From Candidatus Multivorans sp. (lineage in GTDB: Bacteria; Acidobacteriota; Thermoanaerobaculia; Multivoradales; Multivoraceae): DNA of 64,000 nucleotides. The stretch covers positions 1,952,001 through 2,016,000 of the forward strand of contig OZ245033.1 of NCBI GenBank assembly GCA_965224025.1, given 5' to 3'. The notes beneath the pieces are model-generated. The model made no database searches. It was not told the DNA's origin and worked only from the letters and a program-made list of their open reading frames with translations. The position numbers and the translations under genes were made by a program. Of the stretch, positions 54,379 to 60,354 are shown piece after piece; the stretch's first letter is position 1; each line of letters starts with the position of its first letter.

Positions 54379-54774
54379 TCAAGACCAGATCCGTCCCTGC
54401 CAGCCCGATGTCCCTTCGAGCGAGTCGAACTCGGCATCCTTGGAGATCAGCGGACAACCCAGTTCGATCGAGGAAGCGGCGATGAGACGGTCGAACGGAT
54501 CGCGATGCTCCCAGTCGAGCATGCCGGCACGAGCTGCGACGGCCCGCGTGAAGGGAGCGGCCAGCGTCTCGGTCTCCGTCACCAGGGCGCCGACGTGCGG
54601 CTCCATGTCCGGCCATTTGCCGAGTCGCACCTTTCTCGTCACTTCGTAGACACCGATCGGGCTGACATAGACCACGTCGGCTGCGAGCACGGCGGCCTTC
54701 ACGGTGTCCGTCAGGCGCTCCGGCGCCATGAGACTCCAGATCCACGCGTGCGTGTCGAGCAGGACGGAACTCAG
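54379..54774 (-). CDS. vapC: VapC PIN-domain toxin
   Basis: LLDTHAWIW, HRDPFDRL, SKD; apparent CTG start overlapping the antitoxin stop. Confidence 0.88.
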   Translation of the reverse strand: MSSVLLDTHAWIWSLMAPERLTDTVKAAVLAADVVYVSPIGVYEVTRKVRLGKWPDMEPHVGALVTETETLAAPFTRAVAARAGMLDWEHRDPFDRLIAASSIELGCPLISKDAEFDSLEGTSGWQGRIWS

Positions 54775-55001
54775 GACGTTCCTTCCCAGGAAGCCAGTTC
54801 GGCCTCATCCATCGCTTCGTCGAAGTCAGGCACGGTCTTGACCAGATAGGCCAGACTCCCGAAGCGGAACGCCTTCGACGACACCGGAACCAGCCTGACC
54901 GCGGGCTTGCCCCTGCGGGCGATGATCACGTCGTCGCCCGCTTCGGCGGCGACAATGAGCTTCGACAGTTGCGACTTGGCGGCGTGCATGTTGACGAGCA
55001 T
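54771..55001 (-). CDS. Phd/YefM antitoxin
   Basis: VNMHAAKSQLSKLI...GDDVIIARRGKP. Confidence 0.9.
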   Translation of the reverse strand: MLVNMHAAKSQLSKLIVAAEAGDDVIIARRGKPAVRLVPVSSKAFRFGSLAYLVKTVPDFDEAMDEAELASWEGTS

Positions 55002-55013
55002 TGCGCCCTCCTC

Positions 55014-55030
55014 CTAGCTAGTCTAGCTAG
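55014..55030. promoter_or_regulatory. Palindromic operator of the phd-vapC operon
   Basis: CTAGCTAG-T-CTAGCTAG directly upstream of the GGAGG RBS. Confidence 0.65.
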
Positions 55031-55344
55031 ATCAGCGTAACAGCGAATCGTACTACGACCCGGCGCAGTCGCGCCGCTCAACGCCGATGAAGTGAATCGC
55101 GTGTGGAGCGGAGCCGGCCGGAAGGCCGGCGCACCTGTACCTTTCTCGGGTGGATTCTGGTGGGTCGTTGAGAGAGGTGGAATCGACCAGTAGCCGTCGT
55201 GGCTGCGGTAGCTGTGGGAAACCGGCTTGCCGGTTTTCCAAGGTCCGGCGGGAAACGGTCTGCCGTTTTCCGCCGGACCGGCAGCTTCCGCAGCCGGGAC
55301 CGCCGGTCGGTTTCGTTTCCGGCCTGCCGGAGTCACTGAAGGAA

Positions 55345-55501
55345 GGTCGGCAAGCAGCCAGGAGCGACCACCGGCGCACTGTGCTTCGAGCACCTGGCTG
55401 GGACCCGTGCCCTGGCTGCTTCGCCGCGTTGGACGCCCAGTGGAGAGTCAGTGCCTTAGAGCACCAGTACAGGTACGGGCAGGCAACGCGGCATGCCGAC
55501 C
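55345..55501 (+). ncRNA. IS110 bridge RNA (target-binding and donor-binding loops)
   Basis: Two stem/internal-loop modules whose loop sequences match the reconstructed target and donor sites (see findings); the true 5' end may lie near 55150. Confidence 0.85.
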
Positions 55502-55535
55502 AGGCAACACTACCGCAAGGGAGAAGGAGGACGAG

Positions 55536-56789
55536 ATGACCAGGACGTGGTTCGTCGGCGTGGACTGGGGGTCCGAGACCCACCACGTGTGTGTGCTGGA
55601 TCGGGACGGCAAGGTGAGGGGGGAGCGGGCGTTCGACCACAGCGGCAAGGGACTTGCCGCCATGGCCGACTGGCTCCTTGGACATACCCGACCGACGTCT
55701 CCGGACGAGATCGGCGTCGCCATCGAGGTGCCGCACGGACCGGTGGTCGAGACTCTCCTGGAGCGGGGCTTCGCCGTGCATTCGATCAACCCCAAGCAGC
55801 TCGACCGCTTCAGGGACCGCTTCTCCGTCGCCGGCGCCAAGGATGACCGCCGCGATGCACGGGCGCTCGCCGCCGCGCTTCGCACCGACCCCGAGTGCCT
55901 GAACCGCGTGCAACCATCCGATGCAGCCATCGTGATGCTGCGCGAGGTGTCCCGCGGCCGCAAGCAGTTGGTCGGCCAGAAGAACCGCCTGGAGAACCAG
56001 GTCCGCGACCAGCTCTGGCGCTACTACCCGCAGTTTCTCGCCGTGGTCAAGAACGAGGTGTCGGCGCCCTTCGCGCTGGCCTTGTGGCGACTGGCGCCGA
56101 CCCCCGGCAAGGCTCGACGGCTGCGCGAAGCCACGCTCGCCAAACTGCTCAAGGAACACCGCATCCGGCGCCTGACCTCCGCCCAACTGCGCGATCAACT
56201 GCGGGCCGAGCCGATCGCCGTTTCCCCGGACACCGTTAAGGCCGCCGTCGAACACATAGGACTCCTCCGGCCGGTGCTCGACACCGTCTGCCGCCAACTC
56301 GCCGACGCCGACAAGCGGCTGGAGCGGATGACCCGCGCACTCGAGGCCCCGGCCCAACGGGAAAACGACGACGACTCCCCTAAGCCGAGCGACGCCGCCA
56401 TCCTCAGGTCGCTGCCCGGACTCGGCAAGGTCGGCCTCGCCACCCTGCTCTCCGAGGCCGATCAAAGCCTGGGCCGCAGAGACCACGAGGCACTGCGTTG
56501 CCTCTGCGGAGTGGCGCCGGTGACCGTCAAGTCCGGCAAGAAGCTCATCGTCATGCGACGACTCGCCGCCAACGAACACCTCAGCGACGCCGTCTATCAC
56601 TGGGGACGAGTCGCCATCCAGCACGACCCGATCAGCCGCGCCAAGTACGACGCCATGAAAGCCCAGGGAAAGACGCACGGACGCGCCATCAGACAACTCG
56701 TCGACCGACTCCTCGGCGTCGCCTGCGCCATGCTCCGAGACCGAACTCTCTTCGACCCCAACAAGCGATGCCATGCCCAGGTCGCATGA
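55536..56789 (+). CDS. IS110 DEDD recombinase
   Basis: FVGVDW, AIE, KDDRRDA (RuvC-like DEDD); SLPGLG, GVAP..KSG catalytic Ser; GGAGG RBS. Confidence 0.95.
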   Translation: MTRTWFVGVDWGSETHHVCVLDRDGKVRGERAFDHSGKGLAAMADWLLGHTRPTSPDEIGVAIEVPHGPVVETLLERGFAVHSINPKQLDRFRDRFSVAGAKDDRRDARALAAALRTDPECLNRVQPSDAAIVMLREVSRGRKQLVGQKNRLENQVRDQLWRYYPQFLAVVKNEVSAPFALALWRLAPTPGKARRLREATLAKLLKEHRIRRLTSAQLRDQLRAEPIAVSPDTVKAAVEHIGLLRPVLDTVCRQLADADKRLERMTRALEAPAQRENDDDSPKPSDAAILRSLPGLGKVGLATLLSEADQSLGRRDHEALRCLCGVAPVTVKSGKKLIVMRRLAANEHLSDAVYHWGRVAIQHDPISRAKYDAMKAQGKTHGRAIRQLVDRLLGVACAMLRDRTLFDPNKRCHAQVA

Positions 56790-56851
56790 CCTCCCTGACC
56801 CGCAGCAGCCTCCCCAAAACACACTTGCTAAAGGGTGGAGAGTCCCAGTAG

Positions 56852-58381
56852 CTACCCGCTTCCCGGAATCGCCTCGACCAGCAACGTCAGCGCCTTCTGC
56901 AACGACGCGCCGGCATGGCCACCGAACGACCCCTCGTACAGACCGAGCCGGACGACCACCATCTCGTGCGAGGGCACGATGATCGTGCTTTGCCCGCCCG
57001 CGCCCTGCATGCTGAAAGCGCTCTCCGGCAGTGAGGGGTAGCGCCTGTTGCCGCCCCGAGGCGGCTGGTTGATCCAGAAGAAGCCGCCGTAGATGGGCCT
57101 GCCGTCGGCGACCCAGGCCGGCGCCGGTGTGCTGACGAAACGGGCGAGCCCCTCCGGCAGCACGCGCTCGCCGGTCGGCGAGACGCCGTCATCCAGGTAG
57201 AGCTGGCCGAGCCGCGCCCAGGTGCGGCCGGAACCGAAGCCATAGCCGTTCAGCAGGAAGTTGCCGTACGGATCCGCCTCGGCGACGAAGCGCCGTACGC
57301 CGATCCGGTCGAAGAGGTGCTTCTGGGGGAACTGGTGGTAGTTGTCGCCGCGACCCTCGACCGCCAGCCGGACGAGGTGGTTGATCAGGATCGGATCACA
57401 GTTCCGGTAGCGGCCGATCGCGTTCGGGGGCCATTGCGGCGAACGCTCCGTGGCCCAGAGGTGGGAGTTCACCGTGCCGGTGTAGAGGTAGAGGTGGTCC
57501 GGGTAGCCCATCGCCGCCTCGTCGTACTCGGGGTCCCCGGCGTTCACGCATCGCAGGCCGCTCGACATGCGCAAGATGTCCTGGATGCGGATCGTGCCGC
57601 GGACGTCGTCCGGGTCCTGGTGCCAGGAATCGACCGGCGCCAACTGGTCGAGGGTGTAGGCGCCCTGCTCGATCAGCACCCCCATCAGGGTCGCCGACAG
57701 GCTCTTGTTCATCGACCAACTCTCGAGCGGGGTGTCCTTGTCGATGCCATCGCGGTAGCGCTCGGCGACCAGGCGGCCCCGGTGGAGCACGACGAAGGCC
57801 AGGGTCATCGCCTCGGGCTCGAAGGCCGCTTCCACCGCGGCCGCGAGCTTCTCCGCGTCCACGTCGTCCGGGAGCGGCTCATCCGGCAGCGCGTCGCCCA
57901 TCGGCCAGGGGGCGCTCTCATCGAGCGCGCTGGTGACCGAAACCGTCTCGTAGAACGGCGCGACCTCGCCCTTCGGCAGGGACACGCAGCCCTGGTCGCC
58001 GTGCAACACCGCGGTGCGGGTCACGCCGGTGTCGGTCGTGACGTGGACGCGCTGGTTCTCGCGATCGAGCCGGCGTCCCGGTAGCCGGTCCCGGTACCGG
58101 TGGCGAGAGGTGAACCCGCCGATCCAGGTCTGGGCGCCCTCGAAGTCGAGTCCGGTCAGGAAGACGGCGGAGCACAGGACCTTGGCGAACCCGGCGGCCT
58201 CATGCTCGATGAAATCGCCCGGGGGCGGTACGCGGACGGTGTCGAGTTCGTGTTCCTGGCCGCGGGCTACCAGGCTTTCGCTGAGCGTGAGTTCCTGGCC
58301 TGCGGCCGCGGGCTGGTTGCCGCCGGCGTCGGCGCAGCCGGCGAGCAGAGCCGACGTGAGGAAGATCCAGCGGGAGAGCAT
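56852..58381 (-). CDS. Serine hydrolase, beta-lactamase class C fold, lipoprotein
   Basis: Lipobox LAGC, SWSMNK (SxxK), YRN, QGAGGQ. Confidence 0.88.
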   Translation of the reverse strand: MLSRWIFLTSALLAGCADAGGNQPAAAGQELTLSESLVARGQEHELDTVRVPPPGDFIEHEAAGFAKVLCSAVFLTGLDFEGAQTWIGGFTSRHRYRDRLPGRRLDRENQRVHVTTDTGVTRTAVLHGDQGCVSLPKGEVAPFYETVSVTSALDESAPWPMGDALPDEPLPDDVDAEKLAAAVEAAFEPEAMTLAFVVLHRGRLVAERYRDGIDKDTPLESWSMNKSLSATLMGVLIEQGAYTLDQLAPVDSWHQDPDDVRGTIRIQDILRMSSGLRCVNAGDPEYDEAAMGYPDHLYLYTGTVNSHLWATERSPQWPPNAIGRYRNCDPILINHLVRLAVEGRGDNYHQFPQKHLFDRIGVRRFVAEADPYGNFLLNGYGFGSGRTWARLGQLYLDDGVSPTGERVLPEGLARFVSTPAPAWVADGRPIYGGFFWINQPPRGGNRRYPSLPESAFSMQGAGGQSTIIVPSHEMVVVRLGLYEGSFGGHAGASLQKALTLLVEAIPGSG

Positions 58382-60354
58382 CACTCGCCCTCCGGCCGGT
58401 ACCAGATCGGCGATGTCCAGGCCATCTCCTGGATCGCGTCGGGATACGAGCCGTCCGAGCACACGGCCGGACGGTCCTCCGGGGCGAGGCGCTGGCAGTC
58501 GTACGAGGTCCAGCGCGGGCTGGGTTCCTCCACGACCCGCAGGTAGTAGTAGGCGTGCAGGCCCGGATCGAACTCCTCGTCGCGATACACCGTGCAGAGG
58601 CTGTCGTGACCGTTGGGCGACCCGGCGATCGGGATGACCAGGGTGCGGCCGGTCCCATCGGCGTCGACCCAGCCCTTGACGAGCTGGAGCACATGCAGGA
58701 GCCCGGCGTCCTCCGCCGGGTCGCGGGCGGCGAAGGCGAGGAAGGTCGGCGCAGCGCCGGCGGCCGCCTCCGTGAGGTCGCCGCCCATCGGCACGCCGCC
58801 GGCGTACGCCTGGTCGAGCAGGTCCGCCTGGTCGCAGAGATTCGGCGGGTAGTCCCAGCCTCCGAAAAACCGCGGACGGATGCGCGGACCCGAGGTGCCG
58901 AACACCTCACGCCGTTCCATCGCCTCGAAGATCGCGTCGCGGGAGTTCTCGACTGCCCAGACGCCGGCCAGACCGCCGGGATTGCCGTCGATGCCGCTGG
59001 TCAGGAGACCCGGCTGAAGGCGCTCCTCGGGCGTCTGCTCCACGGACACCGCGCCGCCCCAGTCGTCTTCGGCCACCGCCCCCGGCGTCGCCGTGTGCGT
59101 GTCGGTCGACGCGATGATGCCGAGCTTGACCGGATTGAGCCCGGTCTCCATCTCCTCCTCCAGGCCGACGACGAGCGCCGAGCGAACGAAGTCCGTCCGG
59201 TCGACGCAGCCGGCGCCAAGCATGCCCTGGTTGCCGTTCTCGCCCTCCGGGCACTCCTCCGTCCGCAAGGTGGCCTCGCCCGTAAGCAGGGACTGGACCG
59301 TCTCTTCGCGGCCCATCACCCGCACCGCCTCGACGTTGCACAACTCGTCCGGCTCGGCGAACACGGTCGACAGCCCGTTGATGCACTCGGAGCCGCCCTT
59401 GTGCTGGAAGATCTCGATGATCGGTTCCCGCTCCAGCCGCTTCTCGGCGTACCCGCGGCGCGCTTCGAGCGTTCCGGCGAGTCCGCGATACGGCGCCATC
59501 CGACCGTTCGCGAGATTGCTGTTGTGCGGGATCGTCAGGTAGTCGCAACCGGGCCGCGCCGTCCCGTCGCCGCAGACCGCGTCGAGCCCTTGCCAGAGCA
59601 GGCTGTCCGTCGGCGCGTCGATGTACGACACCGGCAGATCGGGCACCTCCGAGCTCCGGAAGACGACGTTGCGGTGGTAGTTCGAGATCCCCGGCGTGCC
59701 GGTGTACTCGTAGCCGACGAAGCTGGTGAAGCTGCACTCCTCCGTCCGGTCGTAGGCGTCCTCCGCCGCGTCGATGATCGCCTCCCAGGGGCTCTTCGCC
59801 CATTCGAGACAGAGCGACCCGTCCTCGCCGCACAGTTCCTCGATGCGGCTCGGCGTCTCGGTCGTGATGACGGCGCCGAGCATCTGCATCCCGACTCGCT
59901 GGTTTGAGCGGGACTCGGTGCAGAACTCGCTGTCGTAGCGCGGGGACTCGGGATCCCGGCACAGGCGGCGCTCGCCCAGGAACTCGCCGTGGTCGGTCAC
60001 CGCGACGAAGTCGAGCGGCCGGTCGATCATGATGCTGCCCTCGGGCGTGCCGTCCGAGCCGATGGGCCAGAACGGGATCGACTCGCCCTTCGCGAAGCGG
60101 TAGGCGTCCGCCGGCGTGGCCCCGGTGCTGTTCGCCGCCGCGTCGAAGGAGAAGCTCGTGTGGACGTGCAGGTCGCCGAACAACGCCTGGCGGAGCGGTG
60201 TCGCGTCGAGGCAGCCGGGCCGGTCTTCCGTGCGCGAGACGGTGCTGCCTGGGATAGCCGGGTCCTGCGAAGTGCCTTCGACCGAAGGACCGGCGCACGC
60301 AACCACGGCGGCGGCCATGAGGATCGGCAGGGCGCGGTACGACTCGTTTCTCAT
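58381..60354 (-). CDS. DUF3604 (PHP-like) lipoprotein
   Basis: FGDLHVHTSFSFD, TDHGE, HRNV, PHNSN, STDTH, AWTSPIWY. Confidence 0.88.
   Translation of the reverse strand: MRNESYRALPILMAAAVVACAGPSVEGTSQDPAIPGSTVSRTEDRPGCLDATPLRQALFGDLHVHTSFSFDAAANSTGATPADAYRFAKGESIPFWPIGSDGTPEGSIMIDRPLDFVAVTDHGEFLGERRLCRDPESPRYDSEFCTESRSNQRVGMQMLGAVITTETPSRIEELCGEDGSLCLEWAKSPWEAIIDAAEDAYDRTEECSFTSFVGYEYTGTPGISNYHRNVVFRSSEVPDLPVSYIDAPTDSLLWQGLDAVCGDGTARPGCDYLTIPHNSNLANGRMAPYRGLAGTLEARRGYAEKRLEREPIIEIFQHKGGSECINGLSTVFAEPDELCNVEAVRVMGREETVQSLLTGEATLRTEECPEGENGNQGMLGAGCVDRTDFVRSALVVGLEEEMETGLNPVKLGIIASTDTHTATPGAVAEDDWGGAVSVEQTPEERLQPGLLTSGIDGNPGGLAGVWAVENSRDAIFEAMERREVFGTSGPRIRPRFFGGWDYPPNLCDQADLLDQAYAGGVPMGGDLTEAAAGAAPTFLAFAARDPAEDAGLLHVLQLVKGWVDADGTGRTLVIPIAGSPNGHDSLCTVYRDEEFDPGLHAYYYLRVVEEPSPRWTSYDCQRLAPEDRPAVCSDGSYPDAIQEMAWTSPIWYRPEGE

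Follow-up and report, generated by a model that had tools for sequence, protein, structure and literature searches.

An IS110-group insertion sequence with a CC core and a predicted bridge RNA in the acidobacterium 'Candidatus Multivorans'

Introduction

Among the mobile elements described so far, the closest to the one considered here are IS621 and IS622 (ISCro4), insertion sequences (ISs) of the IS110 group that move by bridge-RNA-guided recombination (Durrant et al. 2024, PMC11208160; Hiraizumi et al. 2024, PMC11208158; Perry et al., preprint 10.1101/2025.05.14.653916). As these accounts describe them, their recombinases combine a DEDD RuvC-like domain with a Tnp domain that carries a catalytic serine, and their RNA is encoded in a long left end, opposite a short right end, and folds into a 5′ stem-loop and, after it, two stem-loops with internal loops. 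Donor and target share a 2-nucleotide (nt) core; the left guides have the sequence of the DNA top strand, whereas reverse complements serve as right guides (PMC11208160); and the "handshake" guides, a pair of bases immediately 3′ of each right guide, bind positions 6–7 of the other DNA only once the top strands have been exchanged (PMC11208158). A short subterminal inverted repeat lies around the donor, as is described for the IS110 group (PMC11208160), and the right end has a −35-like hexamer. All of these traits recur in an element at positions 55136–56845 of a 64,000-nt stretch of DNA (here "the window") from Candidatus Multivorans sp. (Acidobacteriota, class Thermoanaerobaculia; assembly GCA_965224025.1, contig OZ245033.1, positions 1,952,001 to 2,016,000, forward strand), which is the subject of this report, and which we consider very probably to be an IS110-group IS with a CC core that moves by bridge-RNA-guided recombination.

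It is also worth setting this element beside three more distant systems. The IS1111 group, in which the guiding molecule is called seekRNA or bridge RNA, shares with it the transposase family and the choice of targets by RNA guides (PMC11208160), but there the RNA is described as lying in a long right end, with subterminal repeats of 7–17 bp and donor guides often placed in a multi-loop, whereas the present element has its RNA in the left end, a right end of 56 nt and a repeat of 5 bp. IS110 elements have long been known to target repetitive extragenic palindromic (REP) hairpins, a preference that was recently dissected in the case of ISPpu10 of Pseudomonas putida (preprint 10.64898/2026.03.19.712850), which, according to that preprint, resembles the present element in its REP target, in a GC-rich 5′ stem-loop that overlaps the left target, in having many identical genomic targets, in tolerating a U·G wobble between the left target guide and the left target, and in the hybrid junction promoter proposed for it. 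ISPpu10 differs in its CT core, and its activity and the role of its target stem-loop were demonstrated by experiment, whereas the stem-loop here is known from sequence alone. ISPpu9, with its small-RNA gene Ssr9 (PMC12288879), is likewise described as an IS110-family element of REP sites with an extra RNA module of which copies occur elsewhere in the genome, although in that case the module lies downstream of the transposase gene.

Results

The element spans 1710 bp including one copy of the core, its boundary being ambiguous by those 2 nt, and consists of a 400-nt non-coding left end (55136–55535), a single open reading frame (ORF) and a 56-nt right end (56790–56845). Reading the plus strand, on which all features of the element are given below, the left flank ends in the 8-nt left target (LT) CCGGCGCA (55126–55133), which is followed by the left copy of the CC core (55134–55135) and by the right donor (RD) TGTAC (55136–55140), that is, by the left end of the element, whose TGTACC is kept in 76/76 parsed orthologous loci. 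At the other end the left donor (LD) GTGGAGAGT (56835–56843) precedes the right copy of CC (56844–56845) and the right target (RT) CAGTA (56846–56850), the right flank reading CAGTAG (56846–56851). Terminal inverted repeats are absent, and only a short subterminal inverted repeat of 5 bp is present, with CCTTT (55140–55144) as its left half and AAAGG (56830–56834) as its right; together with the long RNA-bearing left end, the short right end, and CC at both junctions but single in empty sites, this is the anatomy of the IS110 group. Twelve full-length copies in the same genome share these termini and 57 uninterrupted sites agree with them, and because CC is single in the empty sites, both the 2-nt core and the ends of the element are fixed. 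The core is likewise CC in all 76 parsed orthologous loci, which without exception start with TGTACC and end with GTGG[AG][AG]AGT-CC, which makes a CC core a trait of this clade. The CT core that marks the narrow IS621-like subgroup is not found, which excludes the element from that subgroup without affecting its membership in the family.

The ORF (55536–56789), preceded by AAGGAGGA, encodes a transposase or recombinase of 417 amino acids (aa), identified by Pfam, NCBIfam and alignment with IS621. Its N-terminal DEDD RuvC-like domain matches PF01548 (DEDD_Tnp_IS110; 2.1e-33, profile positions 1–155), its C-terminal Tnp domain with a catalytic Ser-Gly matches PF02371 (Transposase_20; 1.1e-12), and the whole scores 176.5 bits against NCBIfam NF033542, "IS110 family RNA-guided transposase", for which the cut-off is 140. 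A sequence search of solved structures found only the transposases of IS621 and ISCro4, and in the resulting alignment D10, E64, D104, D107 and S333-G334 lie opposite D11, E60, D102, D105 and S241-G242 of IS621 (8wt6_A), which are the residues of the composite active site as named by Hiraizumi et al. (2024, PMC11208158).

Four words in the left end correspond to the two halves of the target and of the donor, with the strand relations known from IS621. The left target guide (LTG), CCGGCGCAC with a U at the second core position (55371–55380), equals positions 55126–55134 at 9/9 nt, and the right target guide (RTG), GGCTGGG (55396–55402), is the reverse complement of CC plus CAGCC in a register that was set by the orthologs. 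On the donor side, the left donor guide (LDG) GTGGAGAGTC (55440–55449) equals 56835–56844 at 10/10 nt, while the right donor guide (RDG) GTACAGG (55467–55473) is at 7/7 nt the reverse complement of CC plus TGTAC and is kept in 76/76 parsed loci. CC is covered fully by both right guides, and some orthologs (those with an L054-class LTG, for example) cover it fully in a left guide as well. Each of the four words is present once in the left end (CTGGG, the 3′ part of the RTG, at 55398). As a control for chance we used 20,000 dinucleotide-preserving shuffles of 55141–55535: the 9-mer CCGGCGCAC appeared in 125 of them, the 10-mer GTGGAGAGTC in 29, the 7-mer GTACAGG in 426 and the 5-mer CTGGG in 10,945, which makes this 5-mer worthless as evidence when taken alone, but none of the 20,000 contained all four, and the set as a whole is not a product of chance. 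An initial annotation of this region had already described the guides, and its coordinates, junctions, CC core and matches proved exact when read against the window sequence; three of its four guides stand as described (LTG 9/9, LDG 10/10, RDG 7/7), whereas the fourth, the RTG, comprises 7 nt rather than the 5 nt given there.

The guides lie within a predicted RNA structure. The minimum free energy (MFE) fold of 55340–55505 has −85.1 kcal/mol (z = −3.55; 0/200 shuffles fold as well) and comprises an outer stem, followed by two arms that each consist of a closing stem, an internal loop and a distal hairpin. The target-binding arm (55353–55421) runs from its closing stem through the LTG, the distal hairpin (55381–55393) and the RTG back to the closing stem, and the donor-binding arm (55424–55491) repeats this order with its closing stems, the LDG, a distal hairpin (55452–55464) and the RDG. 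The outer stem pairs GGTCGGCA (55345–55352) with TGCCGACC (55494–55501), in the MFE fold here and in the folds of orthologs, and would thereby close both arms into a three-way junction whose helices are separated by linkers of 0–2 nt. All of the stems proposed in the initial annotation (AAGCAGCCAGG/CCTGGCTGCTT, GTGCT-tcg-AGCAC, CCGCGTTG..GCCC/GGGC..CAACGCGG and GGTCGGCA/TGCCGACC) are present in this fold, apart from the detail that A55352, which had been placed in two stems at once, folds in the outer one.

Comparison of 24 distinct orthologous sequences with RNAalifold yielded 36 pairs, 13 of them with compensatory changes, mostly in the closing stems of both arms. The closing stem of the target arm has many such changes (alignment columns 19–31/77–88), and the stem pairs of the donor arm occupy columns 91–106/149–165 and 120–123/131–134; compensatory changes in the stems that surround the guides argue for an RNA. 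Because MAFFT misaligns the outer stem between clades, this helix was assessed sequence by sequence: at least 7 pairs of it formed in the MFE folds of 23/24 distinct orthologs, as against 17.8% of 960 controls in which the last 26 nt had been shuffled, and the paired letters differ by clade (GTCGGCA/TGCCGAC versus GAGTCGGGC/GCCCG..CGACTC). The three-way junction proposed in the initial annotation is thus borne out by the fold of this copy and by those of 23 of the 24 orthologs, and we regard it as real at the level of structure prediction. A search of Rfam with E values up to 1 found no family over the guide arms; weak matches to mir-4660, isrG and Cgb105, all of them within the long hairpin described below, were rejected as chance-level, their scores lying far below the gathering scores.

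A scan of one genome per species provided 80 loci encoding related proteins, in 'Candidatus Multivorans' metagenome-assembled genomes (MAGs; protein identity 91–93% and 72–76%), in Thermoanaerobaculia MAGs (65%), in Vicinamibacterales MAGs (56–59%) and, at one locus, in Azospirillum canadense (59%). Target arm and left flank could be parsed in 76 of 81 sequences, and in 66 of these 76 the right end lay within the fetched locus; with two loci set aside, L084 and L091, in which the right flank starts with TGTAC, 64 loci remained, mostly from Acidobacteriota and falling into 18 guide classes. Across these, cognate guides and flanks matched at 8.09/9 positions on the left and 6.31/7 on the right, as compared with 5.30/9 and 4.17/7 for non-cognate pairs (n=1088), scores that are inflated because several classes have one target in common. 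The cognate RTG match was 7/7 in 10/18 guide classes at the first parse, and the ortholog alignments fix the register of this guide at 7 nt. At least seven different target specificities are carried on one RNA scaffold among these relatives. Examples are the guide pairs AGGGGTCCC/GAAAAGG, GCGATCCC/CAAATGG, GTGGACGC/GGGGAGG, TTCGTCCC/GGGAGGG and GTGATA(A)CCC/GACAAGG, found with the targets GGGGTC-CC-TTTTC, GCGATC-CC-ATTTG, GTGGACG-CC-TCCCC, TTCGTC-CC-CTCCC and GTGATAC-CC-TTGTC, respectively. One further locus, L103, whose right match was 2/7 at first, has two right-end-like sequences about 200 nt apart (2786 and 2982), each with a TTG hexamer; the outer one is followed by TCCTC, exactly as its guide GAGGAGG predicts, and the inner one has no matching flank, so that L103 was added to the 7/7 classes with its outer right end. 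The ends of L103, L084 and L091 recall the donor-only boundary matches and tandem non-coding repeats that are mentioned in a preprint (10.64898/2026.08.14.744561).

The donor side behaves in the same manner. The LDG matches the LD at 9–11 of 11 positions in all 66 loci with a right end and covaries with it in three states, GTGGAGAGT, GTGGGAAGT and GTGGGGAGT (GAGAG, GGAAG and GGGAG). A third layer of agreement, absent from the initial annotation, is seen in the handshake bases. In the window, the target arm has AC (55403–55404), complementary to donor positions 6–7 (GT, 56842–56843), and the donor arm has TA (55474–55475), of which the first base pairs with target position 7 (A55133). Among the relatives, the target-arm bases are AC, complementary to donor GT, in 62/66 loci and AT in 4, and the A lies opposite donor T7 in 66/66 loci while being mismatched with position 7 of the locus's own target. 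The donor-arm base is Watson–Crick with target position 7 in 75/76 loci, with one wobble, and it occurs in three states (U-A in 33 loci, G-C in 38 and C-G in 4). This covariation constitutes strong evidence, drawn from sequence comparison, that the published mechanism would apply here.

Within its own genome the element is abundant. BLAST of the element against the 5.14-Mb assembly, in which the window is C1:1952001–2016000, found the 12 full-length copies mentioned above (1708–1713 bp, 97–100% identical, same ends), two more with a deletion of 79 or 91 nt inside the left-end hairpin, and one copy split in two parts. An intact 417-aa ORF is present in 10/14 copies examined, with 0–12 aa differences among them, and relative to the window copy nine copies have 9–14 substitutions per 1710 bp and three have 37–50. 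Three copies lie within 20 kb (C1:2007136–2027155, at 2007136, 2020657 and 2025446), with an empty target site 57 nt upstream of the third (2025389). The parts of the split copy, C1:13083–13635 and 5044243–5045399, are both on the minus strand, are cut at element position 552–553 and lie near opposite ends of contig C1, which would put them about 15 kb from each other on a circular contig. Beside one of these parts lies a copy (5042840–5043274) of a second, different IS110-family element, of which the genome has about 16 copies (for example C1:111845–112279 and 225688–226122; PF01548, about 92.5 bits).

Every copy whose flanks were read occupies the same kind of site, with ...GCCGGC-N4-5-GCCGGCG[C/T]A-CC before the element and CAGT, CAGC or CGGT after it. 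Direct reading of the flanks gave CCGGCG[C/T]ACC at 13/14 left junctions, the fourteenth left flank being taken from the alignment, and the genome also has 57 uninterrupted sites of the form CCGGCG[CT]ACC-C[AG]G, mostly in the same hairpin context; one of these empty sites, with a single CC, lies 25 nt past a copy of the element (right flank of L010). In the window, the REP-like hairpin GCCGGCC-GGAA-GGCCGGC (55113–55130) overlaps the left target with its 3′ arm, and the same GCCGGC-N4-5-GCCGGC context is found at most occupied sites. In MFE folds the two commonest shapes, each with a 7-bp stem and a 4-nt loop, appeared in 23/57 empty sites, and a hairpin test passed by 51/57 real sites was also passed by 47/57 sites with shuffled upstream sequence, so that folding does not discriminate in DNA this rich in GC. 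The element is a site-specific IS of a REP-like hairpin family. Position 7 of the LTG (55377) is C or T among the copies, with T in 5/15 left ends and in the contigs of all four public runs that were mapped (the U variant of the guide), and the REP target has the matching polymorphism, with T in 6/57 empty and 4/14 occupied sites.

How the RNA would be transcribed is suggested by the two ends together. A scan for promoters found no sigma-70-like promoter in the linear element. A candidate −35, TTGCTA (56825–56830), lies in the right end; joining of the two ends would place it 17 nt from a candidate −10, TACCTT (55138–55143; 3/6 consensus positions), a pair that would be formed only on the circle junction. 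A hexamer TTG[AC]NN is present at an identical distance from the right end in 25/25 distinct orthologous right ends, the sequence upstream of it being unrelated. This layout would fit the published junction-promoter model, and we treat the junction promoter as tentative because its −10 is poor and overlaps the conserved donor word. Of 23 public runs, all available as contigs, none was recorded as RNA. Contigs from four of these runs showed the IS fragmented and at high depth, and one X1 contig spans the left junction (54972–55153); five listed contig joints have sides of 21–37 nt and look like other copies or relatives.

The 5′ part of the left end is large. Ahead of the guide arms, at about 55155–55333, lies a long imperfect hairpin, in effect an enlarged 5′ stem-loop, a 191-nt stretch of which folds at −122.7 kcal/mol. 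The left end measures about 390–400 nt in the elements of Multivorans and other Thermoanaerobaculia, versus about 232 nt in the Vicinamibacterales orthologs, which lack the long hairpin and have a small stem-loop before the arms. Inside the hairpin, fold and alignment define a Y-shaped module of about 94 nt (55202–55295) that is conserved in sequence: among 12 sequences it has 36 pairs, 6 with compensatory change, and it is almost invariant across elements whose proteins share 65–76% identity. This module, for which no matching Rfam family was found, is the least ordinary thing in the region. It occurs at five further places in the same genome with 84–88% identity (C1:2474161–2474283, 3672584–3672706, 4048787–4048909, 1301954–1302035 and 3408854–3408974), and in 8/18 same-genus genomes searched, in 1–11 copies. 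We considered whether these standalone copies are the left ends of another IS110 element, which was ruled out, as there is no IS110 domain at those places and IstB_IS21 is found instead: two of the five form the end of a repeat that is 1.6 kb or longer and codes for an IstB_IS21 ATPase (PF01695, 1.3e-23) together with a fragment similar to Mu-transposase C-terminal domains. By these domains, the repeat is an IS21-family element.

The insertion is flanked by genes on both sides. To its left, at 54379–55001 on the minus strand, lies a type II toxin-antitoxin pair with a PIN protein (PF01850, 2.2e-11) and a Phd/YefM antitoxin (PF02604, 1e-08), the antitoxin start being about 130 nt from the IS. 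To its right, a 536-aa protein of PF00144 (Beta-lactamase family serine hydrolase) is encoded at 56852–58462 on the minus strand; 6 nt lie between the end of the gene, whose stop codon is at 56852–56854, and the right end of the IS. Orthologs of this gene are present in 35/40 same-genus genomes (86–92% identity). At nine same-genus loci examined no IS lies beside it: five are without a REP, an inverted empty REP is present in both L110 and L111, the REP of L112 is a variant and L117 has another sequence. As the intergenic region differs in this way, no exact pre-insertion allele of the window locus was found among the 40 same-genus genomes searched, through the nine loci examined.

Discussion

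The resemblance to the IS621 type of bridge recombination that the initial annotation had recognized holds for the transposase, the two-arm RNA, the guide geometry, the covariation and the handshake. In the mechanism that we favor, the 400-nt left end would encode a non-coding RNA in which the large 5′ hairpin is followed by one arm for binding the target and another for binding the donor; in the donor-binding arm, GUGGAGAGUC and GUACAGG would read the element's own joined ends; and the CC core is where the 417-aa DEDD/Ser recombinase would exchange strands, with the handshake bases AC and UA able to pair with the other DNA's position 7 only once the top strands have been exchanged. Insertion would then take place in the REP-like hairpin site GCCGGC-N4-5-GCCGGCGCA-CC-CAGY, which occurs dozens of times in the genome. 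By analogy with the work on IS621, IS622 and ISPpu10, one may further expect expression of the RNA from a junction promoter, a circular intermediate, the same chemistry and an element that is presently active.

Several observations weigh against this mechanism and should be set against its support. On the guide side, the RTG GGCTGGG matches the right flank of this copy at only 5/7 positions plus one G·T wobble, and suits CAGC-type REP variants better than the CAGTA found here. The second core position is not Watson–Crick in the left guides: the LTG has a U·G wobble there and the LDG an A/G mismatch, unlike IS621, in which all four pairings are described as including the core (PMC11208160). Among the relatives, RTG and right flank disagree in L050, the right ends of L084 and L091 are followed by the donor-like TGTAC and by no flank that fits the RTG, five loci (L074, L075, L085, L087 and L104) could not be parsed, and ten have no right end in the fetched locus. 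Covariation of guides with flanks and donors, which the initial annotation had named as a check, is clear across orthologs, where cognate scores exceed non-cognate ones, but it is not significant among the copies in this genome: at LTG position 7, the C or T of the guide agrees with that of the copy's own flank in 10/15 left ends and disagrees in 5/15, of which two have a C guide and a T target (a true mismatch) and three a U guide and a C target (a wobble), so that action in trans or gene conversion must be assumed. With regard to expression and movement, the candidate junction promoter matches 7/12 sigma-70 consensus positions (by eye), below the scanning threshold, and contigs from the four public runs contained neither a joint of the right end to the left (a circle) nor one skipping 55136–56845, although rare circles cannot be revealed by contigs. 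Lastly, 4/14 copies carry frameshifts, three of them having in common the loss of 1 nt close to the gene's 3′ end and the fourth a 2-nt insertion; these indels may be real or assembly errors.

Some of these observations invite the reading that this is a genuine IS110 element with a bridge-RNA gene that no longer moves here, its copies being relics of a past burst and the present copy inert. The four frameshifted copies, the two with left-end deletions, the split copy and the three that differ from the window copy by 37–50 substitutions are what such a history would leave, and neither a circle-junction joint in the mapped contigs nor a strictly orthologous empty site in 40 same-genus genomes was found. 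However, 10/14 copies keep the full 417-aa frame, nine differ from the window copy by only 9–14 substitutions in 1710 bp, the guides, stems and catalytic residues are all intact, 57 target sites are still free, and rare circles would be invisible in contigs; we regard an element that no longer moves here as unlikely. An element that is still mobile, as the initial annotation had supposed, is suggested by the copy number, the near-identity of the copies and their intact parts. A far less probable explanation, which we consider extremely unlikely, is that the loop matches are not RNA guides at all, but subterminal DNA repeats read by a protein, or a captured REP fragment. The 9-mer CCGGCGCAC does belong to a REP family that is abundant in the genome, so that capture is conceivable, and CTGGG alone is found in more than half of the shuffles (10,945/20,000). 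Yet orthologs with unrelated, non-REP targets keep the relation at the same loop positions, where right guides are without exception reverse complements and left guides without exception of the same strand; compensatory changes preserve the stems around them; the geometry is the one solved for IS621; and a handshake base that covaries with the target in three states would be unexpected for a repeat read by a protein.

It is also possible, though doubtful, that the RNA resembles that of IS621 but is used differently owing to the closed three-way junction and the large 5′ domain; one RNA might, for example, be prevented from serving both arms of one synapse, or a host or element factor that binds the Y module might control the level of the RNA. 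In IS621 the arms are described as joined by a flexible linker, with two RNAs per synapse (PMC11208158), whereas the conserved outer stem here leaves linkers of only 0–2 nt between the arms, and the Y module is nearly invariant at 65–76% protein identity and is common to the IS21-family element. On the other hand, Vicinamibacterales orthologs with the same scaffold have only a small 5′ stem-loop, which indicates that the basic mechanism can do without the large domain, and removing IS621's 5′ stem-loop is reported to have cut recombination only slightly (PMC11208158). One may speculate further, with little expectation of being right, that the Y module is an autonomous RNA or DNA module swapped between unrelated ISs (IS110 and IS21) that would control the level of the bridge RNA or the loading of the recombinase, and that together with the closed junction it would mark a CC-core clade that handles its RNA unlike IS621. 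Bridge-RNA-guided recombination at a CC core, carried out much as in IS621, remains the reading that we prefer.

Within that reading, the differences from IS621 are nonetheless worth listing. The core is CC rather than CT; the protein has 417 aa as compared with 326 aa and is only weakly similar (phmmer E = 2e-11); the RTG comprises 7 nt (the core plus 5), whereas that of IS621 is described as 4 nt plus an optional extension; the left guides have a wobble or a mismatch at the second core position; an outer stem closes the arms into a three-way junction with linkers of 0–2 nt in place of a flexible linker; the 5′ stem-loop measures about 180 nt; and the host is an uncultured acidobacterium. The cores given in two published accounts keep T at the second base, being CT, AT, GT and TT in one (PMC11208160) and CT or GT in another (10.1101/2025.05.14.653916). 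We found no paper that links IS110 or bridge RNA with a "CC core", or bridge RNA with a "three-way junction" or with "Acidobacteriota", although the supplementary IS110 catalogues of PMC11208160 may list such elements. The mechanism itself (published in 2024), the guide geometry, the handshake, the REP-hairpin targets and the wobble in the LTG are all already in print, and what this locus contributes beside them are side features: the CC core, the closed three-way junction, the 7-nt RTG and the Y module shared with the IS21-family element.

For the biology of the host, the locus documents an abundant, site-specific IS in REP hairpins and raises no new question. Within the areas of genome engineering in which bridge recombinases are being developed, a core that is CC throughout a clade, arms that are tied into a three-way junction, and a 7-nt RTG, which would extend the recognized target to 8+2+5 nt, may be of interest. 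For the IS110 family, the element is a clean natural example of bridge-RNA-guided recombination from the Acidobacteriota, and the natural diversity of guides and targets among its relatives suggests that it may be reprogrammable, as the initial annotation had proposed; with at least seven guide and target pairs on one scaffold, nature appears to have "reprogrammed" this system repeatedly.

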